In this document: piece by piece, positions 1 to 18,904 of the stretch | Layout of the letters: each line of letters starts with the position of its first letter | Numbering within the stretch: the first letter of the stretch is position 1 | IMG/VR virus record: IMGVR_UViG_3300035670_007376 | Span: 1 to 18,904 of that record | Length of the DNA: 18,904 nt | Source of the DNA: a virus | Lineage: Duplodnaviria > Heunggongvirae > Uroviricota > Caudoviricetes | Reading direction: 5' to 3' (one strand) | Program-made: the position numbers and the translations under genes | The notes under the pieces: generated by a model | Database searches by the model: none | The model's input: only the letters and a program-made list of their open reading frames with translations | Told to the model about the DNA's origin: nothing

Positions 1-480
1 GCTAACATTTTAAGGTCAAATAATGATATCTTATATCTAGTTAGTAATACTGGTAATAAATTAGGTGCAAAGTGGTTACAAAACTTATTAGGAAATGAAT
101 ATAAAGTACATATTCTTGAAAATATGTATTCATACTCTCATTTGGATTCAACGATTGCTCTACTTCGTGAGGGTCTTTGTTTATTAAATCCTGCAAGAGT
201 AAATGAAAATAATATGCCTGAGATGTTAAAATCTTGGGATAAAATATGGTCACCCCCAATGGTTGATATTGGTTATCATAAAGTTGAAAGAGCATCTGTT
301 TGGGTTGGGATTAACCTATTATCGGTAGATGAAAATACAGTTATATTAGATAATAGACAAACAGAATTAATTAAAGAATTAAAGAAGTATAACATAGACA
401 CATTAGATTGTAAAATAAGACATTCAAGAACATTAGGTGGTTCTTTTCACTGTGTTACTGCGGACATGATAAGAGAATAG
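1..480 (+). CDS. Amidinotransferase (glycine / inosamine-phosphate amidinotransferase family), 5'-truncated
   Basis: Frame +1 is open from base 1 (ANILRSNNDILYLVSNTGNKLGAKWLQNLLGNEYKVHILEN) into the listed ORF at 124. It carries the family motifs LYLVSNTGN.LGA.WLQ, HLDST (catalytic His/Asp) and C-terminal RHSRTLGGSFHCVT (catalytic Cys). Confidence 0.9.
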   Translation, partial: ANILRSNNDILYLVSNTGNKLGAKWLQNLLGNEYKVHILENMYSYSHLDSTIALLREGLCLLNPARVNENNMPEMLKSWDKIWSPPMVDIGYHKVERASVWVGINLLSVDENTVILDNRQTELIKELKKYNIDTLDCKIRHSRTLGGSFHCVTADMIRE

Positions 481-481
481 A

Positions 482-1282
482 ATGAAAAAAGTTTTGGGTA
501 TTTGTGGTGATAGTTTTATGTCTTCGGATTTACCCGATAGGAAAAACGGTGCATATGGTAGACACTTTACCGAAATTTTGGGTAAGATGTTAAATTGTGA
601 AGTTGTTACTTACGCTAGAGGAGGGATTAGTAACCAATCAATTAGACTACAAATTGACGAAATAATAAAACATAACCCACATCATATTATCATCGGAACA
701 ACCACACCCGATAGAATTGAAATACCTGTCAATGATTTGAGTGTTAATAATATATGGGATAAGTGGTCAAACCACGAATTTAAACCCGCAAATGGTCTTT
801 ATAATATCGTTTATGATGGTTTTGAGAATCAATCATTATTACATGATAAATTCAGAGAGATAAAACCCACAATGTACAGTCAAACCTTGTCAAGTATATT
901 GAATATTTTTGAAGAGGAGATATGGGTCTCATCAAAACACCATTTAAGTAAAGAGACATCAGATGCCGTTAGGTCGTATTTCCAAAATCTATACGATATG
1001 CAATGGAAAAGACAACAAGATACTTGGATAATATCTGAAGGGGTTTATAAATTAATGTCATTAGGTTTAGATTTCAACTTAATAACACCACAACTTGATG
1101 ATGAATACTTTACACAATGTAGTGATAAGGTGATTAAGATTAATGATAAATTAAATCCGTGGTCTTATTATGAACCCGATGTACCTTGTCATAATCCATT
1201 TCATATTTCTGACGAATCATCAGTTAAATTGGCTGAATTGTGGTACGAAAAATTAAAAGAAAAATTTATTAATATAATATGA
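482..1282 (+). CDS. SGNH/GDSL-like hydrolase or acyltransferase (paralog 1)
   Basis: N-terminal ICGDSF (nucleophile Ser), YARGGISN (block II-like), IIIGTTTPDR and C-terminal PFHIS. The layout matches the three other SGNH-like ORFs in the window. Confidence 0.65.
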   Translation: MKKVLGICGDSFMSSDLPDRKNGAYGRHFTEILGKMLNCEVVTYARGGISNQSIRLQIDEIIKHNPHHIIIGTTTPDRIEIPVNDLSVNNIWDKWSNHEFKPANGLYNIVYDGFENQSLLHDKFREIKPTMYSQTLSSILNIFEEEIWVSSKHHLSKETSDAVRSYFQNLYDMQWKRQQDTWIISEGVYKLMSLGLDFNLITPQLDDEYFTQCSDKVIKINDKLNPWSYYEPDVPCHNPFHISDESSVKLAELWYEKLKEKFINII

Positions 1283-3408
1283 GAGTTTTAATAATTGGAG
1301 GTGCGGGTTATCTAGGGGTACCATTATCGAATACGTTAACTATTGATTACGATGTTACGGTATTTGATAAATTTATGTACAGTAACACCACATTTCTTAA
1401 TAAACATGTAAAAATTATAAAGGATGACATTGAAAATGTGGAACGATATGTTGATTTATTAAACTCACAAGACGTTATCATTTATCTATCATCCCCAAGA
1501 TTAGGTGAATTGAAAGAGACTACACAATTAATTGAACCGATAAGACAATTCAAAAATACAATTGATTTAATTACCAATCAGAATGTTAGATTGATATTCT
1601 CAAGTAGTTGTAGTGTTTATGGAAAAAGAAATGATGTTGTAAATGAAGAATCCGATATTCAGGTTACATCATTATATTCAGAATTAAAGGTTACATGTGA
1701 AAATATTCTTTTAGAAAAGAACAATCCAAATTTTAAAATTGTCAGATTATCAACACTGTATGGTAACAGTAAATTAAAACGTAATGATGTATTAATCAAC
1801 AACTTAATACAAGATTTAAAAGAAAATAAGGAAATTGAGATTTTCGACCCATTGGCTGAAAGACCGCATCTACACGTTAAGGATTGTGTGAAAGTTTTTA
1901 AAAGTATAATTGAAAGTGATTTTAGTGGTAAAATTATTAATGTCGGTAAAAATGAATTGAATATTAATAAAAAAGATTTAATCGAAAAGATTAGACAAGT
2001 CATTAATCTAAATTTGGAATATAAGTTAATAACGAGCGAAGATAGTAGGTCATATAAGGTAGATTTTTCACATCTTAAAACACATTTCCAATTTAATCAC
2101 ATAACATTTGATGAGGGTATTAAGGAATTGATGGATGATAATAAAGTAATTTGTTCATTAGAGGAATGGGACAGTGTTTTTGATTATTATAGACCGAACG
2201 GTGCATCGAAATCTTGGTATCTAAAAGAGACTGGATTATTTGATTACCCAAAGGCGTGGGGGGTATGGAATCTATTCAACATAGAAGATAACAATCGAGT
2301 GTGGGGTGACGATGTTTTAAAAGAGAACATAACACCACAATATAATTCTGATATTAATTACGTTGAAAAAAATTCACTAAAAAACAAAAAACATTTATAC
2401 CTAATTAATGTATATGACAATCAATTTTTTAATAAAAATAAAGAAATTGGTTTTAAATGTATTTCTGAAGAATATTTGGAAGACGTTAGAAAGGGATATT
2501 GTAAAATCGTCATGATACACCAATTTGAGGGGTATAGTGGGATGAACATTTACAATAATGATTTAGAGGTAATTGATAAATGGATAAAAGAATCAAACTT
2601 ACCTGATGACGGAGTTCACTACATACATGGAAATCTTTTGGTGGATGAGGTGAGGAAAGAAAGAGGTTTAAAATTCAAGTGCCACCCCATATCGATTTTT
2701 GATTCTTGGGTAGACTATAGATTACTAAAAGATGAAATTGTAAAATTCAAACCTAAAGATGAGAAATACCTTTTACTTTCATATAACAGAAACCCAAGAC
2801 CGCATCGAGTTCATTTAGTTAATGAGTTAATAAAAAATGATTTATTTGGAAGAGGTAAAATTAGTTTAGGTAAATTTAGTCCATATGGTGAATATGAAGA
2901 CCTATCTAAAATGACACCGATAGAAATTGATAGGACATTAGACATTAATTGGGCCGTTAATATTGAAATTCCTGACTATGAATCCACATTTATATCGGTA
3001 ATTACTGAAACATTAATTGATACGTCTATTTTGTTTATGTCTGAAAAAATATGGAAACCAATTGTGGCAGGACAACCATTTATTTTATTAGGAAATTTAC
3101 GTACTTTATCATATCTAAAAGAACAAGGTTTTAAGACATTCGATAAATGGATTGATGAGAGTTATGATTTAGAACCCGACCACCACAAAAAAATTGAAAA
3201 GATAGTTAATGAATTAAATAAATTTAAAACTAAAACAATAGAGGAACTAATAGAAATCAGAAAAGAGATGTATGATGTTTGTCTATTTAATAGAAATAAA
3301 TTTGTTGAAATAATAAAAAATAAATACGATTATGACGGACATGGTTGGTCGGACAATAAAAAACCAATCGTAGAGATATTAAAAAGTATTTGGAACGATA
3401 TTAAATAA
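1279..3408 (+). CDS. Fusion: N-terminal NAD-dependent NDP-sugar epimerase/dehydratase (aa ~1-284) + C-terminal EK-motif putative glycosyltransferase (aa ~285-709)
   Basis: N-half: VLIIGGAGYLG Rossmann motif, FSSSCSVYG, YSELK (YxxxK), RLSTLYG, RPHLHVKD. C-half: SYNRNPRPHR, ISVITET, FMSEKIWKPIVAGQPFILLG, GFKTFDKWIDESYD, all shared with four stand-alone paralogs. Confidence is high for the SDR domain and lower for the GT function. Confidence 0.75.
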   Translation: MRVLIIGGAGYLGVPLSNTLTIDYDVTVFDKFMYSNTTFLNKHVKIIKDDIENVERYVDLLNSQDVIIYLSSPRLGELKETTQLIEPIRQFKNTIDLITNQNVRLIFSSSCSVYGKRNDVVNEESDIQVTSLYSELKVTCENILLEKNNPNFKIVRLSTLYGNSKLKRNDVLINNLIQDLKENKEIEIFDPLAERPHLHVKDCVKVFKSIIESDFSGKIINVGKNELNINKKDLIEKIRQVINLNLEYKLITSEDSRSYKVDFSHLKTHFQFNHITFDEGIKELMDDNKVICSLEEWDSVFDYYRPNGASKSWYLKETGLFDYPKAWGVWNLFNIEDNNRVWGDDVLKENITPQYNSDINYVEKNSLKNKKHLYLINVYDNQFFNKNKEIGFKCISEEYLEDVRKGYCKIVMIHQFEGYSGMNIYNNDLEVIDKWIKESNLPDDGVHYIHGNLLVDEVRKERGLKFKCHPISIFDSWVDYRLLKDEIVKFKPKDEKYLLLSYNRNPRPHRVHLVNELIKNDLFGRGKISLGKFSPYGEYEDLSKMTPIEIDRTLDINWAVNIEIPDYESTFISVITETLIDTSILFMSEKIWKPIVAGQPFILLGNLRTLSYLKEQGFKTFDKWIDESYDLEPDHHKKIEKIVNELNKFKTKTIEELIEIRKEMYDVCLFNRNKFVEIIKNKYDYDGHGWSDNKKPIVEILKSIWNDIK

Positions 3409-3413
3409 AAAAT

Positions 3414-4706
3414 ATGAATTTTGTTTTTGAAGATATTAGTATACCCAGAAATTTTATCAAAAATTGGGTCGATAACAAGGCGGGTTCTACAAGATTCACA
3501 ATGTCACCGTTATATAGTAGAATGTCCTTTATTAGGAGCTTCAACCATGCATATGAGTTTAGTACTTTTGATTATGCTGTTGAAAATAAACCAAAGTATT
3601 ATGTAATCCCTGTTGGAGTTAACAACGACCCAATTATGTGGGCGGGTGGTAAGTATTCTGCTGACCCATCTATACCAAGTTTGTTTGAATTTTTAAGTGA
3701 AGTTTACCTTAAAGATTTGAGAGACCAAAGGGCATATCTTTTAGTAGATTCGAGTTTTGAAGGATATCATGAAGATTGGTTATTTGATTTTTTTCATAAA
3801 GAATGTGATGATTATGGTATATCACCTAATCAGATATTTTTTGTTACAGGAAATTCAATTGTGGAGGATAGATATAAACTGTGGTTAGAAAAAAATCCAC
3901 AGAAGATATTGATGCACCCGTTACCATACTCACATTTTGAGGCTGACGTTTTTTGTCAATCAATCGATATGAGAAGGAATAATACCCCATTGAAGACATT
4001 CGAAGAACACTACCAATATAAAATTTACAATTTAGATAATATAAAATTATATAACAATTTAAATAAAAAACCAAGAGAGCATCGTATATGGTTCTATTCT
4101 AAATTATATTACTCTAAACTCTTGGAAAAGGGGTTGGTGAGTATGAATCAAATCAATGAACCAGGTGGTAGATATTTTTGTGGAACATCAATGGATGAGG
4201 TTTATGTTAAAGAAATTTCTAAAACATTACCATCTATTTTATATGGTGAATCTAATGAAATCCACGACCCAAACTACTATGTGGTTAGAATACATGAAAA
4301 ACCACATTTGGATTCTTGGGTATCTGTGATTAGTGAGGCACAATACGAAGACAAACAGGGAACAGTATTTTTAAGTGAGAAAGTTTTTAAACCTATGACG
4401 TGTTTTCACCCTTTTATTATCATGGGTAATAAGCATAGTTTAAAGGAATTGAAAGAACTTGGATACCAAACATTTTCAAATTGGTTTGATGAAAGTTATG
4501 ATGACATGGAAGACACAAAAAGAATGGACCAAATTATCAGAACACTATATCAATTAGACAAGGTTAAAAATAAAGTCGGTATGTATAAAGAAATGGAAAA
4601 TGTCTTAAAACATAATTACGAAGTTTTGAGATATAATGCAGCTAATTCATTTCCGTATGCATTTAGAATGATGAATAAGGAGTTTCAAAAGAATAACATC
4701 ATTTAA
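3414..4706 (+). CDS. EK-motif putative glycosyltransferase (GT10/GT-B-like), paralog 2
   Basis: NLNKKPREHR, VSVISEA, FLSEKVFKPMTCFHPFIIMG, GYQTFSNWFDESYD. The CDS itself is certain. The GT function is inferred from resemblance to the GT10 ...ENS/T...YxTEK...P motif. Confidence 0.55.
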   Translation: MNFVFEDISIPRNFIKNWVDNKAGSTRFTMSPLYSRMSFIRSFNHAYEFSTFDYAVENKPKYYVIPVGVNNDPIMWAGGKYSADPSIPSLFEFLSEVYLKDLRDQRAYLLVDSSFEGYHEDWLFDFFHKECDDYGISPNQIFFVTGNSIVEDRYKLWLEKNPQKILMHPLPYSHFEADVFCQSIDMRRNNTPLKTFEEHYQYKIYNLDNIKLYNNLNKKPREHRIWFYSKLYYSKLLEKGLVSMNQINEPGGRYFCGTSMDEVYVKEISKTLPSILYGESNEIHDPNYYVVRIHEKPHLDSWVSVISEAQYEDKQGTVFLSEKVFKPMTCFHPFIIMGNKHSLKELKELGYQTFSNWFDESYDDMEDTKRMDQIIRTLYQLDKVKNKVGMYKEMENVLKHNYEVLRYNAANSFPYAFRMMNKEFQKNNII

Positions 4707-5593
4707 TGAATAATCTTTATACGTTTGGTTGTAGCTTTACTAATTTCTGTTATCCAACGTATGCGGATTATTTGGCACCATATTATAAAACACATTATAA
4801 TTTAGGATTCCCCGGTTCAGGAAATAAGGCTATATTCCATAAATTATCTTATCTTATACATAAAGGGATTATTTCTGAGGGTGACACTGTAACAATACAA
4901 TGGTCAGCACTTGCCAGAGAAGATAAACTTTTAAATGACGGGGAATGGGTTGGTGGCGGACTAATAACAAACACCCCAATATTCAACGAAAATTATATTA
5001 ACGAGTTTTTTTCAGTAAAACAAAAAGCATACGAACTTTTATCCTTCATTTCAACAATTTTACCAACTATAAGAAGTAAAAATATAAAAGTAAAATGGTT
5101 TTATATGTTGGAACCATGGTTTAGTGATATGTTAGGTGAACCTGGTGCGGTACCCGATATTTTGGTCGACCAATACGTTGAAACATTTAAATCTGGAATC
5201 ATCGATGAAATTAAATCATTATGTGATTCCGATTTCATAGGTAGCATTGAAAGTTTCTCAATAGATAACGGATATTTGAATTTTAGAAACAAACCAACAT
5301 TTTATTTTGAAAATGAAAATAAAATACATCAAGACGACCACCCACCACAATACATTCACTACCTTTTTTCTAAATATTTGTTAAAAAATCTTAACATTGA
5401 GGTCAATGATAATGATGAATTTCTATATAATAATTCATTAGAATGGACCGACTATATCACCAACAAAGATTTAGTATATGAATCTGAATTAAATTTTTTA
5501 AAAAATAAAAAAGAAAAAATTACATATCTTAAAAATCAACATCCACTTTTAAAATGGCCGTCAACAAATAGAGAAGTTTTGAGATTGAAATAA
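4706..5593 (+). CDS. SGNH/GDSL-like hydrolase or acyltransferase (paralog 2, GCSFT type)
   Basis: YTFGCSFT, NLGFPGSGN, VTIQWSALAR, C-terminal DDHP (DxH/DxxH-type catalytic His). TAATG overlap with the upstream gene. Confidence 0.7.
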   Translation: MNNLYTFGCSFTNFCYPTYADYLAPYYKTHYNLGFPGSGNKAIFHKLSYLIHKGIISEGDTVTIQWSALAREDKLLNDGEWVGGGLITNTPIFNENYINEFFSVKQKAYELLSFISTILPTIRSKNIKVKWFYMLEPWFSDMLGEPGAVPDILVDQYVETFKSGIIDEIKSLCDSDFIGSIESFSIDNGYLNFRNKPTFYFENENKIHQDDHPPQYIHYLFSKYLLKNLNIEVNDNDEFLYNNSLEWTDYITNKDLVYESELNFLKNKKEKITYLKNQHPLLKWPSTNREVLRLK

Positions 5594-5610
5594 ACGTAAC
5601 AAATACTTCT

Positions 5611-5640
5611 ATTTTTGATGATTTTTCCTTATATTTCATA
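5611..5640 (+). promoter_or_regulatory. Possible promoter upstream of the dehydrogenase gene
   Basis: Lies in the longest intergenic gap (5594-5657). A T-rich tract is followed by TTATATT (5629-5635), the heptamer also found in the only other gap. TATATTTC is one mismatch from the Bacteroidota -7 element TAnnTTTG, but spacing to the upstream TTG is too short for a canonical promoter. Confidence 0.25.
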
Positions 5641-5657
5641 TAAAAACCAAGATTTTA

Positions 5658-6833
5658 ATGAAAATAGGATTTATAGGAATCGGAAAATTAGGTAAAGATG
5701 CTGCCGAAGTTATGTTTGAAGCTGGACATGACGTAATTGGGTACGACATTAAAAATATACCCGAATGTGAGTTTACCGTGGTAAACAGTATAAAAGATGT
5801 TTGTGATAATCGAGAATTAATATTCATTGCCGTACCGACACCACATCATTGTGATTATGACGGTAGGTACCCAACATCACATCTCCCAAATAAAGATTTT
5901 GATTATTCAATTGTACAAGAAGTATTAATTGAAGTAAACAAATACACAAATAAAAATCAATTAGTAGTTCTAATTTCAACAGTTTTACCGGGAACAATTA
6001 GACGTGAATTTATTGAATTGTGTAGTAATTTTAGATTCATTTACAACCCATATCTGATTGCTATGGGTACAGTTAAATGGGACATGGTTAATCCTGAAAT
6101 GATAATAATTGGTACTGAAGATGGTACTTTAACCGGTGATGCTAAATTACTATTAGATTTTTATAATAGTTTCATTACCGAAGGAACTAGATATGAGGTG
6201 GGTACTTGGGATGAGGCAGAATCGATTAAGATTTTCTATAACACATTCATTTCAACAAAAGTTGCACTTGTCAATTTAATACAGGATGTTGCAGAGAAAA
6301 GTGGTAACATAAATGTTGATGTAGTTACAGGTGCATTAGAAAGGAGTACAAAAAGAATTATGGGTCCATCCTATATGAAAGCTGGTATGGGTGATGGTGG
6401 GGGATGTCATCCGAGAGACAATATAGCATTAAGATACATGGCGGAAAAATTGTCATTAGGATATGACTTATTCGATTCCATAATGTCCGCAAGGGAAATA
6501 CAATCTAAAAATATCGCAAAAAAATTAGTAGAGATTTCAAATGAAAATAATCTACCAATTGTAATATTGGGTAAATCCTATAAACCAAATGTTCATTACG
6601 TTGATGGTTCATCTTCTATTTTGGTGGGTTATTATGTCGAATCAATGGGTAAAGATGTTGAATTTGATTTAGATGACCCTAAACCTGCCGTGTACCTTTT
6701 AGGTCATTTTGGTAAACATCATGACTACCCATTCCCAACCAATAGTGTAATTCTTGACGTTTGGAGGGAATTTAAAACAGATAGGACAGACGTAAAGGTT
6801 ATCCAATACGGAAATACGAGAATAAATGGGTAG
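5658..6833 (+). CDS. ugd: UDP-glucose/GDP-mannose 6-dehydrogenase family protein (divergent active site)
   Basis: IGFIGIGKLG, FIAVPTP, ISTVLPGT, AESIKIFYN (catalytic Lys helix), GMGDGGGCHPRD (catalytic Cys; canonical GGSCFPKD), ILGKSYKP. Confidence 0.9.
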   Translation: MKIGFIGIGKLGKDAAEVMFEAGHDVIGYDIKNIPECEFTVVNSIKDVCDNRELIFIAVPTPHHCDYDGRYPTSHLPNKDFDYSIVQEVLIEVNKYTNKNQLVVLISTVLPGTIRREFIELCSNFRFIYNPYLIAMGTVKWDMVNPEMIIIGTEDGTLTGDAKLLLDFYNSFITEGTRYEVGTWDEAESIKIFYNTFISTKVALVNLIQDVAEKSGNINVDVVTGALERSTKRIMGPSYMKAGMGDGGGCHPRDNIALRYMAEKLSLGYDLFDSIMSAREIQSKNIAKKLVEISNENNLPIVILGKSYKPNVHYVDGSSSILVGYYVESMGKDVEFDLDDPKPAVYLLGHFGKHHDYPFPTNSVILDVWREFKTDRTDVKVIQYGNTRING

Positions 6834-11350: not shown

Positions 11351-11355
11351 GGTCT

Positions 11356-12543: not shown

Positions 12544-13510
12544 TAATAAAAAAGTTTTAATAACAGGTGGTGCGGGAATGATAGGGAGAGCGTTAATCAA
12601 TCTCCTTTTGGAACGAGGTGCACTAATCACAATTGCGGATTTAACGAAACCAACTGATTTATTTGAAGGTGTGGAACACGTTCAAGTTGATTTACGTTTT
12701 TTCGATAATTGTTTAGACATATGTAAAGGTAAAGATTACGTATTCCATTTAGCTGGAGTCAAAGGTTCCCCAAAAATGTGTATGGAACAACCCGTAGATT
12801 TCATGGTTCCAATGTTACAGTTCAATACGAATATGATGCAAGCCGCATTTGAATCTAATGTTGAGTGGTATCTTTATACAAGTTCTGTTGGTGTTTATTC
12901 ACCCGCAAATATTTTTTATGAGGACACTGTTTGGAATACGTTCCCATCCCCAAATGACAAATATGCCGGTTGGGCTAAACGTATAGGTGAGTTACAAGCA
13001 GAAACATATAATAAACAATACGGATGGGATAGAATCTCGATAGTGAGACCTGCAAATGTTTACGGGCCTTATGATAACTTCAATCCCGAAAATGCGATGG
13101 TTGTCCCTTCATTAATAAGGAAAGCTAATGAGAATAATGTATTAGAGGTGATGGGAGATGGGAGTTCAATTAGAGATTTCATATTTGCTGATGACGTTGC
13201 TCGTGGTATGGTCACTGCGGTTGAAAAGAAAATAACAGAACCAATTAATTTAGGTTCTGGTGTTGGAAGGTCAATACGTGAATTAGTACAATTGGTAACT
13301 AACAATTCGAATCGAGAAAATTTAGTTAGTTGGTCTAATTTAACGGGAGTTAAAGGTGATGATATTAGATTGTTTGACACATCACGTGCGGAATCGTATG
13401 GTATTAAACCAATGATATCGTTAGAAGACGGAATTAGAATTACAACAGAATGGTATTTGAATAATAAAGAAATTTTAGATAAACGTTATAATCCGTTTGT
13501 CAATCATTAA
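12533..13510 (+). CDS. NAD-dependent NDP-sugar epimerase/reductase (Fcl/GME-like extended SDR), Tyr-less variant
   Basis: VLITGGAGMIG, VFHLAG, YTSSVGVY, VRPANVYGPYDNF, IRDFIFADDVARG, NLGSG. The active-site segment reads YAGWAKR. The start could be 12533 or 12536. Confidence 0.85.
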   Translation: MMFNNKKVLITGGAGMIGRALINLLLERGALITIADLTKPTDLFEGVEHVQVDLRFFDNCLDICKGKDYVFHLAGVKGSPKMCMEQPVDFMVPMLQFNTNMMQAAFESNVEWYLYTSSVGVYSPANIFYEDTVWNTFPSPNDKYAGWAKRIGELQAETYNKQYGWDRISIVRPANVYGPYDNFNPENAMVVPSLIRKANENNVLEVMGDGSSIRDFIFADDVARGMVTAVEKKITEPINLGSGVGRSIRELVQLVTNNSNRENLVSWSNLTGVKGDDIRLFDTSRAESYGIKPMISLEDGIRITTEWYLNNKEILDKRYNPFVNH

Positions 13511-13511
13511 T

Positions 13512-14471
13512 ATGGATAATTTTTTAAAAGATAAGAAAGTAGTCGTTACAGGAGGCTCTGGTTTTATTGGTACCCATTTTTTAAAGGAACTAGTGAACAG
13601 AGGTGCTAAAGTGAGAACCTCAACAAACAAAGCACAGTTACAATTTAAAAGTGATGAACTAATAGTTTATAGAGATTTAAATTTATTGTCATTAGATGAT
13701 TGTCTTAAGCTCACTGAAGATGCTGATTATGTTATTCATTGTGCTGGTGAAGTTGCACACCCATCGTCAGTACCAACGGATGTCCAAATATCTTTAAAAC
13801 AATTAAACTTAATTGGGAATGTGTTAGAAGCTTGTGCAAAGAATGGTGTTAAACGATTTTTAGATTTGAACAGTTCAACAGGATACCCTGACATTAGACG
13901 ACCATTAACTGAAGATGAATATTGGGTGGGTGAACCATATAAATCCTATTATGGATATGGTTGGATGAGGAGATATAGAGAGAAACTAATGGAACATGTA
14001 TCTAAATTCTCAGGATTAGAAATTGCACTTGCAAGATGTACTGCAATATTTGGTCCACATGATAATTTCAACCCTGAAACTTGTCACGTAGTTCCTGCAT
14101 TAATCAAACGAGTACTTGATGATGAAAATCCATTTACAGCTTGGGGTTCACCTGACGTTGTGAGAGATTTTTTATATGTTAAGGATGTTGTTGATGGTGC
14201 ATTATTGATATTAGAAAAGGGTGAATCTATGAGACCATATAATTTAGGTTATGGTGGTGGTATCAGCATTGGTGAAATTTTGGATACGATATTAAAAGTG
14301 ACAGATAAAAATCCTGAAATTGTTTGGGATAATACTAAACCAACAACAATACCATATCGTGCGGTTAGTACCGACAGAATTCAAAATGAGTTGGGGTTTA
14401 AACCAAAATTCACTTTTGAAGAGGGGATGAAAGAAACAATTAAATGGTATAGAGAAAATGGCACTATATAG
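13512..14471 (+). CDS. NAD-dependent NDP-sugar epimerase/reductase (GDP-L-fucose synthase/C4-reductase-like extended SDR)
   Basis: VVVTGGSGFIG, VIHCAG, NSSTGYP, YGWMRR, IFGPHDNF...HVVPALI, WGSPDVVRDFLYVKD. Start moved from the TTG at 13497 to the ATG at 13512, one base after the upstream stop. Confidence 0.85.
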   Translation: MDNFLKDKKVVVTGGSGFIGTHFLKELVNRGAKVRTSTNKAQLQFKSDELIVYRDLNLLSLDDCLKLTEDADYVIHCAGEVAHPSSVPTDVQISLKQLNLIGNVLEACAKNGVKRFLDLNSSTGYPDIRRPLTEDEYWVGEPYKSYYGYGWMRRYREKLMEHVSKFSGLEIALARCTAIFGPHDNFNPETCHVVPALIKRVLDDENPFTAWGSPDVVRDFLYVKDVVDGALLILEKGESMRPYNLGYGGGISIGEILDTILKVTDKNPEIVWDNTKPTTIPYRAVSTDRIQNELGFKPKFTFEEGMKETIKWYRENGTI

Positions 14472-15600
14472 ATACGAAAAAAATGTCTTAATAGTGTTAC
14501 CGTCACCAGGTCAAGATACGATTAATGATATAACGGATTTAATTCAAACAATAAAACCTAAAAATCACGTGTTGATTTGGCAACCGTGGGAGGAAAGTGA
14601 CATTAGATTTAGTGAATACTTATCACAAAATTATAAAGACGAGCCATTACATTCAGAAAACACTTTAAGATTTCAAGACACACTTTTAAAAAACAATGTA
14701 AAATGTTATTTACTTGTGGGTTCGGACTTTACTCAAGAATCATATGGTAATTTGGTAACAAATCCGATTGAAAATTTTGAAGTTCTATTTTGGCCGACAT
14801 CACTACTACATTACACATATTATGGGTTTGAAAAATCTTATGGTGACCCATTAAAAATATATAACCAACATAAAAATATTGATACTCTCTATTTAAATCT
14901 AAATGGTAAAGATAGAAATCACAGATGTATGATGATGGATTATCTTTGTAGATTTGACTTGTTGAAAGACGGAATAAATACGTGGAAAAAAGACGACACA
15001 CCTTGGAATTTTAAATGTTGGGAACCAAAAAAACTGTCAATTGATGAGTACCACCAAAACAAGTATATACACCAAACAAACACAAAAGGTTTATTAAGTA
15101 TTAATAATTTAGTGGATGTGATTACCGAAACGATGCCAATAATGCATCAATCAGAAAAAGAATTTCTCTTCTACACTGAAAAAACATATAGGAGTATATT
15201 GTTTGGAAAACCGTTTTTAATTTTAGGAAGTAAAAAGCAAAATTTAAAACTAAAAGAATATGGTTTTAAAATCTTTGACACAATATTTGATTATGACTTT
15301 GACTCTGAAATATCAGTAAAACACAGATGTTTAGGTATCATTGAAAATTTATATATGATAAAAAATAAAAATTTTAACGAAATAAGGGACTGTGTTAATG
15401 AGGATGTTTTATCAAATATTGATACTGCGAAGAAAATTGTGTATAATGATGAAAAGATACCAAACAAATTAATTGATTTGATTAGAGAAAATCCTGAAGA
15501 TTTTAATGAGTTTTTTAAAACATTTAATGTAAATTATGTTGGTATTTTTGATTTGAATAATGATTTTGAACTAACAAAACAAATTTTTAAAAATATATAA
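14458..15600 (+). CDS. EK-motif putative glycosyltransferase (GT10/GT-B-like), paralog 5
   Basis: NLNGKDRNHR, VDVITET, FYTEKTYRSILFGKPFLILG, YGFKIFDTIFDYDFD. Confidence 0.55.
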   Translation: MALYRYEKNVLIVLPSPGQDTINDITDLIQTIKPKNHVLIWQPWEESDIRFSEYLSQNYKDEPLHSENTLRFQDTLLKNNVKCYLLVGSDFTQESYGNLVTNPIENFEVLFWPTSLLHYTYYGFEKSYGDPLKIYNQHKNIDTLYLNLNGKDRNHRCMMMDYLCRFDLLKDGINTWKKDDTPWNFKCWEPKKLSIDEYHQNKYIHQTNTKGLLSINNLVDVITETMPIMHQSEKEFLFYTEKTYRSILFGKPFLILGSKKQNLKLKEYGFKIFDTIFDYDFDSEISVKHRCLGIIENLYMIKNKNFNEIRDCVNEDVLSNIDTAKKIVYNDEKIPNKLIDLIRENPEDFNEFFKTFNVNYVGIFDLNNDFELTKQIFKNI

Positions 15601-16608
15601 ATGAACATATTAATAACTGGTGTATTAGGAATGGTTGGTTCACATATGTTGGATTTTCTTTTGGAAAAACCAAATGTGAAAATTTACGGATTTTGTAGAT
15701 GGAACGAGTCAATGGACAACATTGAACATTTAACTGGTATAATCAATAAAAAAGAAAAAATCGAACTAATTTATGGTGATTTAAATGACTATGCATCATT
15801 ACAAAGTGCAATAGAAAAATCAAAACCAGATTTTGTTTTTCATTTAGGTGCGCAATCATACCCCCAAACAAGTTTCGATTCACCAATTGAGACGTTACAA
15901 ACGAATATTATTGGTACAACAAACTTATTAGAAGCAATTAGAAAATCAGAATACAAAGACGCTCTGATTCATGTATGTGCTTCTAGTGAGATTTTCGGAA
16001 GAGTTCCCGAAGATAAATTACCAATAGATGAGGAGTGTAGTATACATCCGGCATCACCATATGCGATATCTAAAGTTGGTACAGATTTAATTGGTAGATA
16101 TTATGCTGAAGCATATGGAATGAAGATTATGACGACAAGAATGTTTACACATACTGGTCCAAGAAGAGGAGATGTCTTCCATGAATCAACATTTGCTAAA
16201 CAAATTGCAATGATTGAATCAGGTCTACAAGAACCAAAAATATTGGTGGGTAATTTAAACTCATTAAGAACATATGCGGATGTAAGAGATGCTGTCAGGG
16301 CTTATTGGTTACTACTAACTGTAAACCCAATACCGGGTGAATATTATAATATCGGTGGAAACTTTACGTGTAGTGTGGGAGGTACTTTAGAATATCTTTT
16401 ATCTAAATCTACAACTCCAAATATTGAAATTGTGTTAGATATGGATAGATTCAGACCAATTGATGCAAACCTTCAAATACCTAATACAACAAAGTTTAAA
16501 AATCATACGGGTTGGGAGCCTGAAATTCCTTATAATAAAACAATGGACGACCTATTGGATTATTGGAGAAAAAGAATAAATAATGGTCGTAAATTCCTAA
16601 ACAGATAA
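15601..16608 (+). CDS. GDP-sugar 4,6-dehydratase (Gmd family; resembles GDP-manno-heptose dehydratase DmhA/DdahA)
   Basis: ILITGVLGMVG, HLGAQSYPQTSF, ASSEIFG, PASPYAISK (YxxxK), RMFTHTGPRR, VGNLNSLRTYADVRD, RPID. The segments RWNESMDNIEHL, PIETLQTNIIGT and C-terminal GRKFLNR match my recollection of Campylobacter/Yersinia DmhA better than E. coli Gmd. Confidence 0.85.
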   Translation: MNILITGVLGMVGSHMLDFLLEKPNVKIYGFCRWNESMDNIEHLTGIINKKEKIELIYGDLNDYASLQSAIEKSKPDFVFHLGAQSYPQTSFDSPIETLQTNIIGTTNLLEAIRKSEYKDALIHVCASSEIFGRVPEDKLPIDEECSIHPASPYAISKVGTDLIGRYYAEAYGMKIMTTRMFTHTGPRRGDVFHESTFAKQIAMIESGLQEPKILVGNLNSLRTYADVRDAVRAYWLLLTVNPIPGEYYNIGGNFTCSVGGTLEYLLSKSTTPNIEIVLDMDRFRPIDANLQIPNTTKFKNHTGWEPEIPYNKTMDDLLDYWRKRINNGRKFLNR

Positions 16609-16609
16609 A

Positions 16610-17017
16610 ATGGAAAAAAGAAAGTATCTACCAACATTTGCAGAACTAATCGACAGATTGAGTATCTCACAATTAAAAGAGGTTTTTATACCTGAACATA
16701 AAGAAGAATATGGTCAAGAAATTAGAGACATTGAACATGACATTGATTTAATCCTCAAAGAAAATGATGGATTGGTTGACGCAAAAACAATAAGAGCGAT
16801 TGTCGTTTTAGCTCAAACTAACTTACATATTTGGCATAATGAATCAAATTACCGTAAAGGTATTAAAGAGGGTAATAATTTAGAATTAACCCACGGATTA
16901 AACGGAATTAGAAATACCGCAAAAAACAAAATACAAGAAATTGTTGGTGGTAGAAAAGATTATAAAACCGATTGTTTAGCTGCGGAGTTTAAAGATTGGG
17001 GAATTAGTTGGGATTAA
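16610..17017 (+). CDS. Hypothetical alpha-helical protein (DUF6165/DUF4254-like)
   Basis: 135-aa ORF abutting its neighbours. [11 protein letters not shown] and N..IWH.E..YR resemble my recollection of the DUF6165/DUF4254 patterns (GELIDK.TI; N..(L/I)W..ED..R). The CDS is well supported; the family call is weak. Confidence 0.45.
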
Positions 17018-17027
17018 ATTAAAAATT

Positions 17028-17636
17028 ATGGACGAAATAAAAATAGAATTATTGGAAAATGGTTACTCTATAATTGATGATTTTTTACCTGTTGAGTATG
17101 CGAATAAATTGAATGATTTATTTGTTGGTACTAATGAATGGGAAAAAAATGTACAAGAAAGAGAGAATCATTATTCACATGTTTTTAAAACTGAGTCACC
17201 AAATCTACCAAAAGAAAATGAAGTTTATACCTCTAGTTTTAGTAGGTCGAAATCATTAGAAAGTAATGATGATGTAGTAAAAATATTTAATGAATATTTC
17301 GTCGATTTACTAAATAAAACTTCACCATTTCCTTTAACCGATTTTGATGTAAGATGTTATAAATTAGATGTTGGAGACCATTATAGAACTCATATGGATG
17401 ATTACGCAGGTAAAATAAACGCAATTTACTATGTGAATAAAGAATGGGTTTGGGATTGGGGTGGAATGTTAAATATTTGTTCAGATATTGACCATGAATT
17501 TAACAAACAAATATTCCCAAAGTTTAATCGAGTGGTCTTATTAAATAACCAAGTTTTTAGACAACCTCATTTTGTGAGTACGGTCCAAAATTATGTGAAA
17601 AACCCAAGATTTAGTATAGTTTCATTTAATAAATAA
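17028..17636 (+). CDS. 2OG-Fe(II) oxygenase (prolyl-4-hydroxylase-like)
   Basis: YRTHMDD (HxD), [17 protein letters not shown] (distal His), PRFSIVSF (2OG-binding Arg). Confidence 0.9.
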
Positions 17637-17637
17637 T

Positions 17638-18192
17638 ATGAGTTATAAAGATAAAAAATGGGATGAGTGGAATGTATCATATCTAAAAACATTTGGATGT
17701 GAGGTACCCATATTTACACCATCAATTTATAGAGAATATCGAGGTGAAATATTTTCAACATTTCATTCTGAAAAACATCCCGTTTTAAATAATATTCATC
17801 ACGACATTAATGATATTAATTTCCACACCAAATTCTCCAAATCACACAAAGGAGTTTTAAGAGGTTTACATTACGATAATAAAAGTTGGAAATTGATACA
17901 AGCAATTGTCGGAGAAATTTATTTGGTGGTATTGGATAATCGAGCCTTTTCATCCACTCGCGGTAAATGGGAATCTTATTTATTGTCAGATAAAACAAGA
18001 GACCAAGTTTTAATACCACCAGGGTTTGCCAATGGACATTATGCCGTTACCGATTGTATGTTTTATTACAATTATTTTTATGTTGGTGATTATGTTGACG
18101 AACATCAACAAGGTGTAATTAAGTGGAATAACCCCGAGTATAATATAGAATGGCCAACAGATAACCCAATTTTACAAAAAAGAGACAGATGA
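17638..18192 (+). CDS. RmlC-family NDP-4-keto-6-deoxysugar 3(,5)-epimerase (resembles heptose epimerase DdahB/MlghB)
   Basis: YRGEIF, SKSHKGVLRGLH, VLIPPGFANGH, W...IEWPTDNPIL..RD. LHYDNKSWKL and RGEI resemble Cj1430-type enzymes (IHGD.K..KL, RGEI) more than classical RmlC (LHYQ, RGFF). Confidence 0.85.
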   Translation: MSYKDKKWDEWNVSYLKTFGCEVPIFTPSIYREYRGEIFSTFHSEKHPVLNNIHHDINDINFHTKFSKSHKGVLRGLHYDNKSWKLIQAIVGEIYLVVLDNRAFSSTRGKWESYLLSDKTRDQVLIPPGFANGHYAVTDCMFYYNYFYVGDYVDEHQQGVIKWNNPEYNIEWPTDNPILQKRDR

Positions 18193-18818
18193 TAAAAAAT
18201 TTAGAACAATACCCAATAGTTAATCAACCATTATGGGACACCCATGGTTTAATTGGATTTGAGAAAAAAATAGCTGACCATTGGGAAGCCGGTAGAATTC
18301 GTGGTCCCGTTCATTTGAGTGGTGGTAACGAAGAACATTTAATTGAAATTTTTAGACGAATTAAAAAGAGTGATTGGGTTTTTTCTACTTGGAGGTCACA
18401 TTACCACGCATTATTAAAAGGTTTACCGTCTGAGTGGTTAGAACAAGAAATATTGGAAGGTAGGTCTATCACCATAATAAACAAAGAAGAGAGGTTTTAT
18501 AGTTCGGCCATTGTTGGTGGTATAATACCTATTGCAGTTGGTGTTGCAATTGCAAATAAACGAGATGACAAAGATGACGTTGTGTGGTGTTTTGTTGGTG
18601 ATATGACATTTGAAACGGGAACCTTTATGGAAAATTATAAGTACGTTAAGAATTTTAATTTACCAATAAGATTTGTTGTAGAAGACAACGGAGTTTCAAC
18701 AAATACACCAACAATTGAAACGTGGAATAAAAAATCCGAAATACCAAGTGATGTTGTTTATTATGATTATGAAAAACAATGGCCACATTATGGTACAGGA
18801 AAATGGGTAGTATTTTAA
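18189..18818 (+). CDS. Short ThDP-dependent dehydrogenase E1 alpha-like subunit
   Basis: RGPVHLSGGNE, DWVFSTWRSHYHALLKG, SAIVGGIIPIAVG, and ThDP/Mg motif FVGDMTFETG...FVVEDN. Only 209 aa. Confidence 0.85.
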   Translation: MIKNLEQYPIVNQPLWDTHGLIGFEKKIADHWEAGRIRGPVHLSGGNEEHLIEIFRRIKKSDWVFSTWRSHYHALLKGLPSEWLEQEILEGRSITIINKEERFYSSAIVGGIIPIAVGVAIANKRDDKDDVVWCFVGDMTFETGTFMENYKYVKNFNLPIRFVVEDNGVSTNTPTIETWNKKSEIPSDVVYYDYEKQWPHYGTGKWVVF

Positions 18819-18820
18819 TT

Positions 18821-18904
18821 ATGAAAAAAATATTAGTACTTGGAGGAGGAGGATTTATTGGAGGACATCTTTCAAAAAAACTCAAAGAAGATGGACATTT
18901 TGTG
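18821..18904 (+). CDS. NAD-dependent epimerase/dehydratase N-terminus (GDP-mannose 3,5-epimerase-like), 3'-truncated
   Basis: Not in the ORF track. ATG at 18821 reads MKKILVLGGGGFIGGHLSKKLKEDGHFV, a Rossmann GxxGxxG motif open to the window end. Confidence 0.75.
   Translation, partial: MKKILVLGGGGFIGGHLSKKLKEDGHFV

Follow-up and report, generated by a model that had tools for sequence, protein, structure and literature searches.

What product do the 21 genes of this locus assemble, and on which acceptor? The stretch of DNA analysed here (the window, 18,904 nt) was originally predicted to be a probably viral, membrane-free glycan assembly line, combining sugar precursor synthesis, transferases and tailoring enzymes, that acts on virion proteins, DNA or a host molecule. 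The reading that we favour, at about an even chance, is a soluble sugar-chain factory in which host sugars are remodelled and the chain is built on a phage structural protein, the best candidate being a collagen-like fibre.

Viral origin and gene organization

All 21 open reading frames of the window were found on the plus strand, the first being incomplete at the contig edge and the last continuing past the window end. Coding density was 99.4%; 12 of the 20 junctions were overlaps of 1–40 nt, six were gaps of 0–10 nt and the other two were gaps of 31 and 64 nt, as expected for the co-oriented, close-packed set of the original prediction. The window forms the opening 19 kb of an 83-kb IMG/VR record with a CheckV completeness of 25%. 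Annotation of the flanks and a search of IMG/VR for syntenic loci both supported the predicted viral origin. The flanks encode a collagen-like tail fibre, an M23/endolysin-like peptidase, DNA methyltransferases and ThyA, and contained no wzx/wzy/kps or housekeeping genes. A syntenic block with 58–84% identity was present in related loci L031 and L023 (source phage records of 181 kb and 334 kb), and the virus records of relatives carrying the transferase family described below reach 334 kb in length. Terminase was identified in more distant relatives: of eight records searched, five encode it, including two of 330–333 kb that are at least 92% complete. On this sequence evidence, the window constitutes the left end of an island for glycan biosynthesis that spans at least 55 kb and belongs to an uncultured jumbo tailed phage with an expected genome size of about 330 kb. 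Counting the flank, the island contains about 50 genes.

That the window is an ordinary bacterial surface-polysaccharide locus mistaken for viral is scarcely credible. Close bacterial counterparts exist for individual sugar enzymes, but the viral record, the phage-type flank, the syntenic phage records, the terminase of relatives and the absence of housekeeping, wzx/wzy and kps genes and of membrane proteins all argue against it, as does the finding that neighbours of the transferase family in Atlas and BFVD are nearly all tailed-phage proteins.

A hydrophobicity scan (19-residue Kyte–Doolittle segments, threshold 1.6) detected no encoded membrane proteins up to contig position 56 kb; within the window, only two Rossmann N-termini and one TPP-domain strand reached 1.6. 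The predicted lack of evident TM helices was therefore borne out for the encoded proteins, which does not in itself prove lipid-free assembly. Non-initiating glycosyltransferases of bacterial O-antigen loci mostly lack TM helices, so their absence is compatible with work on a host lipid carrier; carrier and exporter could be supplied by the host.

Features of the window and the evidence for their assignment
Feature	Position	Strand	Basis
StrB1-type amidinotransferase, C-terminal half	1..480	+	PDB 1bwd E 3e-50, aligned to residues 181-339/348
Probable SGNH-like enzyme, weakest of four	482..1282	+	GDS and GGxSN blocks
SDR epimerase/dehydratase-type domain	1279..3408, residues 1-285 of fusion gene	+	Pfam Epimerase E 6e-24
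EK-motif paralog 1, predicted GT-B	1279..3408, C-terminal half (residues about 390-709)	+	BLASTP to other paralogs
EK-motif paralog 2, predicted GT-B	3414..4706	+	BLASTP to paralogs, conserved motif positions
SGNH-fold esterase or acyltransferase	4706..5593	+	Family alignment A2, AF2 model
Nucleotide-sugar 6-dehydrogenase (UDP-glucose/GDP-mannose dehydrogenase family)	5658..6833	+	Pfam central and N-terminal domains
EK-motif paralog 3, predicted GT-B (structure-modelled)	6826..7866	+	AF2 pLDDT 93, pTM 0.91
EK-motif paralog 4, predicted GT-B	7863..9218	+	BLASTP; 33% identity to sixth paralog (19799-21025)
SGNH-fold enzyme	9218..9976	+	A2 member; Atlas neighbours with DUF6071 or Lipase_GDSL
GDSL/SGNH enzyme	9973..10596	+	Pfam Lipase_GDSL_2 30.5 bits (cut-off 32.9)
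DUF5672 protein	10593..11324	+	Pfam PF18922 E 9e-31
ColD/E1-type PMP-dependent sugar C3-dehydratase (DegT family)	11356..12543	+	PDB matches, His at catalytic site
GDP-fucose-synthase/ColC-like SDR (C4-reductase or epimerase-reductase)	12533..13510	+	NCBIfam Fcl E 3e-40, under cut-off
Second GDP-fucose-synthase-like SDR	13497..14471	+	TTG start; 31% identity to 12533..13510
EK-motif paralog 5, predicted GT-B	14458..15600	+	34% identity to 6826-7866, E 8e-44
GDP-D-glycero-D-manno-heptose 4,6-dehydratase-type SDR	15601..16608	+	PDB 7us5 E 1e-106, 360 bits
Conserved 135-aa protein	16610..17017	+	70-84% identity in 5 related loci
2OG-Fe(II) oxygenase	17028..17636	+	Pfam 2OG-FeII_Oxy_4 and Oxy_3, E 2e-10
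RmlC-type cupin C3/C5-epimerase	17638..18192	+	PDB matches
Thiamine-diphosphate-binding (PP) half, split E1/transketolase-like enzyme	18189..18818	+	Pfam E1_dh E 3e-16
Third GDP-fucose-synthase-like SDR, start only in window	18779..18904 (to contig 19798)	+	BLASTP, NCBIfam

Nucleotide-sugar enzymes

The best matches of the window pathway enzymes were Campylobacter or ColD enzymes. For the 4,6-dehydratase the runner-up PDB match scored 193 bits and E. coli GMD 141 bits, and the protein was 52% identical to gene products of cyanophages Bellamy and SynMITS9220M01. The DegT-family protein scored 202 bits with ColD, 150 bits with CDP-sugar 3-dehydrase E1 and at most 131 bits with aminotransferases; its best NCBIfam match was RfbH. 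It contains a His aligned to the catalytic His188 of ColD (position located via variant chain 3b8x), a site that in aminotransferases is occupied by Lys. The ColD-best scores and this His ruled out an aminotransferase identity. The cupin most closely resembled the C. jejuni GDP-4-keto-heptose 3,5- and 3-epimerases (about 118 bits, compared to 82 bits for dTDP RmlC), and the first of the fucose-synthase-like SDRs matched PDB GDP-fucose synthetase and GDP-mannose 3,5-epimerase at about 100 bits. By these similarities, the pathway substrate is probably heptose rather than mannose.

The 6-dehydrogenase matched NCBIfam TIGR03026 with an E value of 1e-44, which is under the model cut-off, and was 57% identical to a cyanophage Bellamy gene product annotated as UDP-glucose dehydrogenase; 33 of the 80 related loci encode a homologue. 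The thiamine-diphosphate-binding half also matched the NCBIfam PDH E1 alpha model (E 6e-27). Its partner PYR half lies at contig positions 21025-21552 (Pfam Transket_pyr), and six related loci, L031, L023 and L010 among them, carry homologues of each half.

Neither a sugar-1-phosphate nucleotidyltransferase (NTP_transferase) nor a heptose isomerase (SIS_2) was found in the available record or in four relatives, of which two have a completeness of at least 92%. The available sequence covers about one quarter of the genome, and the remainder could encode activation or membrane genes. As no nucleotidyltransferase was found, the sugar genes of the window modify nucleotide sugars rather than activate them. 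The precursor synthesis of the original prediction thus holds for modification but not for de novo production, and the phage apparently reworks host-made sugar nucleotides.

EK-motif transferases and tailoring enzymes

The five EK-motif paralogs of the window were related to one another by BLASTP (E 1e-8 to 1e-44), and a sixth is encoded just past the window at contig positions 19799-21025. The E-K pair, N128, H134-R135 and E208 are retained in all six, while the N-terminal halves are divergent. Every PDB and AFDB match to the model of paralog 3 was a GT-B glycosyltransferase, indicating a GT-B glycosyltransferase fold for the EK paralogs. Pfam offers no model for this family, whose only resemblance to GT10 is a short shared motif. 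Paralog 3 has 162 homologues, and no Pfam domain was present among those listed. The family was detected only in uncultured viruses and not in cellular genomes, except for one MAG-binned contig of 27.9% GC that bears the same viral island genes, and is apparently virus-only. The SDR–EK fusion belongs to an Atlas cluster of 90 members, all viral and about 705 aa long. In other phages the EK domain is fused to an SDR epimerase, a methyltransferase or a sugar dehydrogenase, which ties it to nucleotide-sugar chemistry.

The predicted inventory of five EK-motif paralogs, four SGNH-like enzymes, a DUF5672-like protein, an amidinotransferase and a 2OG-Fe(II) oxygenase was recovered in full. Two of the SGNH-fold proteins (4706-5593 and 9218-9976) belong to a 28-sequence family alignment (A2) in which S10, G37, N40 and H212 are invariant and D210 is present in at least 90% of sequences; Pfam Lipase_GDSL matched two of the 28. 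The best 50 PDB matches of the AF2 model of the former (pLDDT 76) were all SGNH enzymes, including acetylxylan esterases and PatB, and the latter has a paralog at contig positions 58156-58788 (BLASTP E 6e-26). By hhalign against A2, the GDSL/SGNH enzyme gave 98% probability (E 1e-13) and the remaining protein a weaker 71% (E 4e-5, N-terminal 73 columns only), with no match in Pfam or PHROG. The contig start removes about 180 residues of the amidinotransferase; its next matches were SxtG, HsvA and GATM, the terminal 'FHC' cysteine motif is kept, and homologues occur in 26–28 of 80 related viral loci. The DUF5672 protein had no PDB sequence match but has an orthologue in L031 (59% identity). The oxygenase contains the HxD, distal His and RxS motifs and had no homologue among the 80 related loci. 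The gene for the 135-aa protein is directly 3' of the dehydratase gene in L031 as well; its Atlas clusters are viral-only, with weak DUF6165/DUF4254 leads and no PDB match.

Proposed assembly and acceptor

The substrates, the sequence of reactions and especially the acceptor are inferred as follows. Host-made nucleotide sugars would be taken up as raw material. The 4,6-dehydratase, the ColD-type C3-dehydratase, the cupin epimerase and two or three reductases would yield one or more GDP-3,6-dideoxy-heptoses, the split thiamine enzyme probably adding a two-carbon branch to a 4-keto intermediate, and the 6-dehydrogenase would produce a uronic acid. Enzymes that depend on thiamine are already known to attach acyl branches to 4-keto-3,6-dideoxy sugars (PMC9306805, PMC4753412). 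The five (six) GT-B paralogs, with conserved donor-side motifs and divergent acceptor-side N-domains, would attach sugars sequentially, and the SGNH-fold enzymes, amidinotransferase, DUF5672 protein and 2OG oxygenase would decorate the product. As acceptor, a structural protein of the phage is most likely, the foremost candidate being the Ser/Thr-rich collagen-like fibre at 45.7–47.7 kb. This fibre would be primed by the adjoining TibC-like protein O-heptosyltransferase, and the chain would be extended directly on the protein in the cytoplasm without lipid carrier or exporter.

The TibC-like gene (contig positions 43500-45632; E 4e-51 to protein heptosyltransferase TibC) lies directly upstream of the fibre gene, the pair being 25 kb downstream of the window, and the fibre contains 41% Ser+Thr and 60 Gly-X-Y triplets. 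In G005, the closest relative examined, a TibC-like gene with 67% identity is located 14 kb from the sugar block; of five relatives with the transferase family, three lack the gene. Collagen-like or Ser/Thr-rich ORFs were found within 10 kb of a transferase gene in only two of 80 related loci, indicating that such fibres are not a general companion of the transferase family. Among the acceptors originally predicted, the overall evidence indirectly favours a virion fibre protein and disfavours DNA.

Alternative explanations

It is possible, although unlikely, that the phage enzymes act at the inner membrane face on host lipid-linked LPS, capsule or S-layer intermediates; export of the altered glycan by the host's own flippase, polymerase and ligase would then change the cell surface and could, for example, block superinfection. 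The closest characterized relatives of the pathway produce capsule sugars, the soluble nature of non-initiating O-antigen transferases fits, and the missing activation genes imply that the phage already depends on host sugar metabolism. Glycosyltransferase-rich 'host recognition clusters' of pelagimyophages and cyanomyophages have been read in this way (PMC7029224). However, no initiating transferase, flippase, polymerase, ligase or acyl-carrier part was found in contig positions 1–56 kb, the scale of the island is far above that of known seroconversion cassettes, a protein-serine glycosyltransferase homologue adjoins the Ser/Thr-rich fibre within the same island, and the near absence of the EK family from cellular genomes also argues against envelope remodelling.

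An improbable alternative is a natural-product-like island whose product is not a macromolecular glycan but a soluble small molecule carrying sugars, or a modified peptide. The StrB1-type amidinotransferase is of an aminoglycoside-pathway type, a carbamoyltransferase and a tryptophan-type halogenase are encoded in the flank, and radical-SAM/SPASM, B12-radical-SAM and DegT-family proteins are abundant in related loci. Yet the window has no scaffold enzyme (cyclitol synthase, PKS or NRPS), an exporter is absent, and six EK paralogs together with further glycosyltransferase families in the flank speak for a chain that is long or branched, not for a mono- or diglycoside. Glycosylation of hydroxymethylated phage bases by the GT-B enzymes, as in T4 and in metavirome gene clusters adding chains of hexose, HexNAc or heptose, is very improbable. 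The top VIA-align structural match was T4 beta-glucosyltransferase (Z 11.1) and T4 alpha-glucosyltransferase was also matched (Z 9.7), but these scores tie with those of dozens of unrelated GT-B enzymes. Phage GT-B enzymes that attach heptose to 5hmC are documented (bioRxiv 10.1101/2023.12.21.572611), and a ThyA-family gene lies 3 kb past the island; this ThyA, however, retains the PPCH and FNIASY motifs and scores about 246 bits against true thymidylate synthases. A Tet/JBP dioxygenase was not found in the available record or four relatives by a search without a positive control, and a 93%-complete relative with the EK family likewise lacks a ThyA-family gene. All EK paralogs are acidic (pI 5.2–6.1, net charge −5 to −12), which also argues against DNA.

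Comparison with characterized systems

For the favoured assembly on the fibre, the priming step differs from its characterized counterpart in that TibC-type enzymes use ADP-heptose, whereas the window pathway is GDP-type. The characterized GDP-3,6-dideoxy-heptose route consists of four enzyme types (PMC10440746), and all four types of this Campylobacter HS:5-type route were found in the window.

RESULTS

Gene layout and membrane segments

The original prediction described 21 co-oriented genes, and all 21 ORFs lie on the plus strand; every item that it listed was found (see the table of features). The first ORF has lost its 5′ end at the contig boundary, and the last extends as far as contig position 19798. 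Coding density in the window is 99.4%, and the 20 junctions comprise 12 overlaps of 1–40 nt, six gaps of 0–10 nt and two longer gaps of 31 and 64 nt. GC content is 24–34% throughout the window. Start codons often overlap the preceding stop codon (ATGA, TAATG). The 20 nt 5′ of the starts are A/T-rich, and inspection by eye did not reveal a clear Shine-Dalgarno sequence at most genes. None of the encoded proteins had been said to have an evident TM helix or signal peptide. In a Kyte–Doolittle scan the only membrane-type segments in the window were two Rossmann N-termini and one thiamine-domain strand. The same crude hydropathy measure identified no protein with a TM-like hydrophobic 19-residue segment in contig positions 1–56 kb.

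Features of the contig and related loci (contig positions unless a locus handle is given)
Position	Strand	Feature	Remark
482-1282	+	SGNH-like enzyme	first SGNH-like gene
1279-3408	+	EK transferase paralog	C-terminal half
3414-4706	+	EK transferase paralog	
4706-5593	+	SGNH-like enzyme	second SGNH-like gene
5658-6833	+	Nucleotide-sugar 6-dehydrogenase	57% identical to gene of cyanophage Bellamy
6826-7866	+	EK transferase paralog	modelled member; residue numbering
7863-9218	+	EK transferase paralog	
9218-9976	+	SGNH-like enzyme	third SGNH-like gene
9973-10596	+	SGNH-like enzyme	fourth SGNH-like gene
11356-12543	+	DegT-family protein	C3-dehydratase
12533-13510	+	GDP-fucose-synthase/ColC-like SDR	
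13497-14471	+	GDP-fucose-synthase/ColC-like SDR	
14458-15600	+	EK transferase paralog	
15601-16608	+	Heptose-type 4,6-dehydratase	
16610-17017	+	135-aa protein	
17638-18192	+	RmlC-type cupin	epimerase
18189-18818	+	Thiamine-diphosphate-binding PP half	E1/transketolase-like, 209 aa
18779-19798	+	GDP-fucose-synthase/ColC-like SDR	last ORF of window
19799-21025		EK transferase paralog	sixth, just beyond window
21025-21552		Pyrimidine-binding PYR half	175 aa; L001:3025-3552
43500-45632		TibC-like gene	outside window
58156-58788		SGNH paralog	outside island
58785-59972		ThyA-family gene	395 aa; L003:785-1972
L014:1543-3791		Radical-SAM neighbour	related viral locus
L014:17126-19390		Radical-SAM neighbour	related viral locus
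L028:13014-14036		Radical-SAM neighbour	related viral locus
L015:300-3743		Large protein with internal repeat	related viral locus
L021:18227-20800		Large protein	related viral locus

The contig is probably viral

The window makes up the leftmost 18.9 kb of one 82.9-kb contig. This contig is an IMG/VR virus record that CheckV rates as 25% complete, and the implied genome size is roughly 330 kb. The remainder of the contig encodes further glycosyltransferases, a carbamoyltransferase, a second 2OG oxygenase, a halogenase, a 678-residue collagen-like tail-fibre protein, an M23/endolysin-like protein, DNA methyltransferases and a ThyA-family gene. Housekeeping genes, a flippase, a polymerase and an ABC exporter are all absent from the contig, and the hydropathy scan of positions 1–56 kb gave no candidate for the flippase, polymerase, ABC exporter or lipid-linked initiating transferase of a Wzx/Wzy- or ABC-type polysaccharide locus.

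Gene order in the block running from the sugar dehydrogenase to the thiamine enzyme is conserved in two related loci (L031 and L023; 58–84% protein identity). Their virus records measure 181 kb and 334 kb, the 334-kb one being IMGVR_UViG_3300027804_000001, and elsewhere in these two records lies a region that corresponds to the right end of the contig. More distant relatives carrying the transferase family include records of 330 kb and 333 kb that are at least 92% complete and contain a large terminase, and on one related contig of 20 kb the terminase and sugar genes lie side by side. In the 83 kb of the record itself no head or packaging gene was identified in a search that covered the terminase family, and a megablast search with the window gave no DNA match to deposited phages. 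As there are no bacterial flanks and no wzx, wzy or kps genes, the description of the locus as probably viral stands, resting on the fibre, the relatives, the conserved gene order and the database class.

Sugar-nucleotide genes resemble a Campylobacter dideoxy-heptose route

The dehydratase aligned best with GDP-D-glycero-D-manno-heptose 4,6-dehydratase (PDB 7us5; E 1e-106, 360 bits), compared to 193 bits for the next-best structure and 141 bits for E. coli GDP-mannose dehydratase. The best matches of the cupin were the C. jejuni GDP-4-keto-heptose 3,5- and 3-epimerases (~118 bits), with dTDP RmlC at 82 bits. The third protein is a Pfam DegT match whose best solved relatives are ColD (202 bits) and CDP-sugar 3-dehydrase E1 (150 bits), both scoring higher than any aminotransferase. 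It has a His at the position of the catalytic His188 of ColD, a site that we located via the variant chain 3b8x; aminotransferases have a Lys at the equivalent site. Because ColD and E1 are closest and His replaces Lys, we conclude that this protein is a PLP/PMP-dependent C3-dehydratase. Its candidacy as an aminotransferase feeding the amidinotransferase was dropped on these grounds. The three SDRs scored ~100 bits against E. coli GDP-fucose synthase (GFS) and plant GDP-mannose 3,5-epimerase (GME), versus ~68 bits against 7m13, 7cxt, 7anc and 7anh, chains that are labelled GDP-L-fucose synthase and that we take to be Campylobacter C4-reductases.

In C. jejuni HS:5 and HS:11 the route to GDP-3,6-dideoxy-heptoses runs through these four enzyme types (Ghosh, Xiang and Raushel 2023, PMC10440746), and those of the window are exactly the types of that route, with the C4-reductases assigned provisionally from sequence. 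Whether GDP-heptose or GDP-mannose would be the true substrate is judged from similarity. Neither SIS_2 nor NTP_transferase domains (GmhA-type isomerase and sugar-1-phosphate nucleotidyltransferase) were found in the 25%-complete record or in four relatives, of which two are almost full-length genomes, and the isomerase, kinase and nucleotidyltransferase of the cyanophage Bellamy had no match in the phage. The genes supplying GDP-D-glycero-D-manno-heptose (GmhA, HddA, GmhB and HddC) were likewise not found in this partial record, and the sugar may come from the host. It seems that the phage does not make nucleotide sugars itself but modifies those of its host.

A thiamine-dependent enzyme is encoded as separate PP and PYR halves, with two genes, an SDR and a glycosyltransferase paralog, between them. 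For each half, six related loci contain a homologue, L031, L023 and L010 among them. A 3,6-dideoxy-4-keto sugar is a known acceptor for thiamine-dependent two-carbon branching (PMC9306805, PMC4753412), so a branched dideoxy-heptose is a reasonable predicted product. The 135-aa protein is 70–84% identical in five related loci and lies directly 3′ of the heptose-type dehydratase in L031 as well. It gave weak leads only (DUF6165/DUF4254 and DUF7164), and neither it nor the DUF5672 protein had a PDB sequence match.

A viral family of GT-B glycosyltransferases

The five predicted EK-motif paralogs were borne out, and a sixth was identified just beyond the window. N128, H134-R135, E208 and E218-K219 (numbering of the modelled paralog) are retained in all six. 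These invariant residues are in the donor-side C-terminal domain and the N-terminal halves are strongly divergent, the pattern expected for a common type of donor and different acceptors.

The modelled paralog has 162 homologues in a large protein collection, and none of the 120 matches listed carries a Pfam domain. Its neighbour clusters in the Atlas are 93–100% viral, with Uroviricota commonest. In some of them the domain is fused to an SDR epimerase (705 aa, 90 members, similar to the first paralog) or to a methyltransferase. In BFVD, 21 proteins named "uncultured Caudovirales phage" matched at E 1e-12 to 1e-8, and one of these also contains a sugar dehydrogenase as a fusion. The family occurs in at least 150 loci in IMG/VR, while a tblastn search of 50,697 deposited phage genomes gave no match. 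A scan of 185,579 prokaryote species with one peptide pattern matched a single contig. That contig (PAAV01000010.1; 27.5 kb, 27.9% GC), from a MAG labelled 'Chloroflexota bacterium', carries the same viral island genes, including those for an amidinotransferase, a carbamoyltransferase, a radical SAM protein and a halogenase-like protein, and is probably a viral contig mis-binned into the MAG.

An AlphaFold model built from 39 sequences had a pLDDT of 93 and a pTM of 0.91, and every match to this predicted structure in fold searches of PDB and AFDB was a GT-B glycosyltransferase. The top VIA-align Z was 11.1, for T4 beta-glucosyltransferase. Many families fall within about 2.5 Z of this value, GT10 at 8.7–9.6, so there is no single closest family. 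A profile of the transferase family identified nothing meaningful among PDB sequences.

The GT10 alpha-1,3-fucosyltransferases (PF00852) share the GT-B fold, and the fold searches returned GT10 structures and POFUT3/4 models among their matches. GT10 enzymes are inverting, take GDP-sugar donors and bind them with a C-terminal FENS...Y-x-T-E-K motif. The C-terminal motif of the family, h-h-[TS]-E-[ST]...h-[TS]-E-K, compares with FEN[SAM]...[VIT]-[TS]-E-K in GT10, the latter taken from nine GT10 sequences of Chloroflexota genomes. An hhalign comparison with these nine sequences aligned only the motif stretch (40 columns, E 0.007, probability 5%). No paralog matched Pfam GT10 at E 0.01, a six-frame search of the record gave none at E 1, and GT10 is not prominent among the GT-B families in the fold ranking. 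On the Pfam and hhalign results we do not assign the family to GT10 and describe it as a GT-B family with a GT10-like motif. A GDP-sugar donor would fit the adjoining GDP-type pathway.

SGNH enzymes, amidinotransferase and other candidate decorating genes

Of four SGNH-like enzymes in the original prediction, the second to fourth were upheld and the first is weaker, with an hhalign probability of 71% over N-terminal blocks only. In a family of 28 sequences including the second and third enzymes, the catalytic S10, the oxyanion residues G37 and N40, and H212 are invariant and D210 is retained in at least 90%. The top 50 structural matches to a model of the second were exclusively SGNH esterases and acyltransferases (TM by target up to 0.68), pointing to the flavodoxin-like SGNH fold, and the fourth aligned with the family at 98% hhalign probability. 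A paralog of the third (31% identity, E 6e-26) is present about 40 kb away, where it shares four bases with the start of the ThyA gene.

The first ORF of the window encodes the C-terminal half of a StrB1-type amidinotransferase (PDB 1bwd, E 3e-50), with an 'FHC' catalytic-Cys motif near the C-terminus; the N-terminal half, with the other catalytic residues, lies beyond the contig end. This ORF is directly 5′ of an SGNH-like gene. In at least six related loci (L032, L043, L044, L048, L051 and L058; about 7.5–9.4 kb, minus strand) the gene for a StrB1-type amidinotransferase overlaps that for a 226-aa SGNH-family protein by several nucleotides, and the two look like a conserved pair. The predicted DUF5672 protein and 2OG-Fe(II) oxygenase are plain Pfam matches.

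When the ten commonest companion families of the transferase were scanned against PHROG and Pfam, only radical-SAM/SPASM, B12-radical-SAM and DegT received names. Genes for radical-SAM/SPASM and B12-binding radical-SAM proteins are among the commonest neighbours, in 19–39 of 80 loci, and none is in the window. Another family, found in 29 related loci, consists of proteins of 857–1147 aa that match nothing in Pfam and have no more than a marginal hit in PHROG; the L015 member contains an internal repeat of the type FDFSWHP...FGTQWQK.GGPRY.

DISCUSSION

The original prediction was of a membrane-free glycan assembly line. The observations behind it are confirmed, and its interpretation is upheld in part. 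Viral origin and soluble proteins are both supported by our analysis, whereas the precursors would apparently be reworked host nucleotide sugars. The parts are solidly identified; their substrates, the sequence of the steps and the acceptor are inferred.

A protein is the best candidate acceptor. The TibC-like gene product matches the protein O-heptosyltransferase TibC (E 4e-51), and the next gene, at 45698–47734, encodes the fibre, which is 41% Ser+Thr and contains a run of 60 Gly-X-Y triplets. In the closest relative compared, the TibC-like gene is 14 kb from the sugar block and the identity is 67%; one other relative has it as well. Several observations argue against a protein acceptor: the TibC-like gene is missing in three of five relatives carrying the transferase family, a collagen-like ORF occurs within 10 kb in only 2 of 80 related loci, and TibC uses ADP-heptose rather than GDP-heptose. 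It is possible, although we consider it doubtful, that a heteroglycan of branched 3,6-dideoxy-heptose, uronic acid, acyl and possibly guanidino groups is built in the cytoplasm on the phage's own fibre, without a lipid carrier, by a new, distantly GT10-like transferase family, so far seen only in viruses, with donors of the GDP-heptose type.

The absence of TM helices is also compatible with a host envelope glycan as acceptor, which is the published reading for similar islands (PMC7029224). The amidinotransferase, carbamoyltransferase and halogenase, together with the radical-SAM-rich neighbourhoods in relatives, suggest that the product may be a soluble small molecule or a peptide. In phage clusters for DNA sugar hypermodification, a glycosyltransferase adjoins a 5-methylpyrimidine dioxygenase or a pyrimidine hydroxymethylase. 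DNA is the least likely acceptor: a search run without a positive control found no Tet/JBP match, one nearly complete relative lacks any ThyA-family gene, the ThyA of this contig resembles a true thymidylate synthase, and all of the transferase paralogs are acidic. Following its PPCH motif, this ThyA carries an additional inserted stretch of ~50 residues, besides an L. casei-type insertion.

Glycosyltransferase-rich islands beside tail-fibre genes are common in abundant aquatic phages and have so far been read, by analogy, as modifiers of host O-antigen. The present island offers three experimental handles: a four-enzyme route to a rare sugar for which in vitro assays are known; a transferase family without a Pfam model, present in more than 150 viral loci and in no cultured phage, with a confident model and invariant residues; and a candidate acceptor, the Ser/Thr-rich fibre adjoining a TibC-like enzyme. 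If the phage does sugar-coat its own fibres, there would be consequences for how hosts are recognised, for escape from host defences and grazers, and for virion behaviour in water; glyco-engineering would also gain a new family of glycosyltransferases and new donor sugars. A fibre glycan built on protein without a lipid carrier would parallel, in a virus of bacteria, the glycosylation of mimivirus fibrils.

Comparison with known systems

The 4,6-dehydratase, DegT-family C3-dehydratase and cupin epimerase types of the C. jejuni HS:5/HS:11 route are all present, together with putative SDR C4-reductases, and C. jejuni enzymes are the best solved relatives of the dehydratase and epimerase. The phage differs in having neither GmhA/HddA/GmhB/HddC nor capsule export genes, in reductases that are nearer to GDP-fucose synthase and GDP-mannose 3,5-epimerase, and in its extra split thiamine enzyme. 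The TibC/Aah autotransporter heptosyltransferases, whose substrates are Ser-rich, provide a second parallel: the island, with its predicted heptose-modifying enzymes, has a TibC homologue directly 5′ of the gene for a repetitive protein rich in Ser and Thr. In this case the phage protein is encoded outside the window and has a 360-residue N-terminal extension, and its presumed substrate is a collagen-like fibre rather than an autotransporter.

Soluble enzymes encoded by the virus, both nucleotide-sugar enzymes and glycosyltransferases, glycosylate virion proteins in the cytoplasm in giant viruses (the chlorovirus capsid and mimivirus fibril glycans) and in mycobacteriophages with glycosylated virions. 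Chloroviruses and mimivirus are eukaryotic viruses, and mycobacteriophage glycosylation involves small two-gene systems. We know of no tailed phage with a glycan island of comparable size or sugar chemistry.

Among phages, the hypervariable islands of T4-like cyanophages and pelagimyophages, termed the 'host recognition cluster' (PMC7029224), are similarly large and mix tail-fibre genes with many glycosyltransferases and sugar-nucleotide enzymes; the island described here is larger, and its phage is a jumbo phage by the CheckV estimate. Synechococcus phage Bellamy, which carries a heptose cluster, has counterparts of the heptose-type dehydratase (52% identity), of the sugar dehydrogenase (57%) and of a carbamoyltransferase (30%). 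The heptose isomerase, kinase and nucleotidyltransferase that Bellamy also encodes are missing from the available sequence of our phage. Thiamine-dependent pathways to acyl-branched sugars, with yersiniose YerE or the two-component E1-like enzymes of avilamycin and paulomycin (PMC9306805, PMC4753412), resemble the window in joining a thiamine enzyme to a 4,6-dehydratase and a C3-dehydratase, which yield a 3,6-dideoxy-4-keto sugar; the phage enzyme is a minimal split PP and PYR pair with a predicted activity.

We found no description of the transferase family, of its six-fold expansion, or of a jumbo phage that combines it with SGNH enzymes, an amidinotransferase, DUF5672 and a split thiamine enzyme. 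The Campylobacter capsule-heptose route, phage islands combining fibres and glycosyltransferases (at the annotation level) and DNA-glycosylating phage clusters are already known. For the sugar route, what is new is its setting and the lack of its activation genes.
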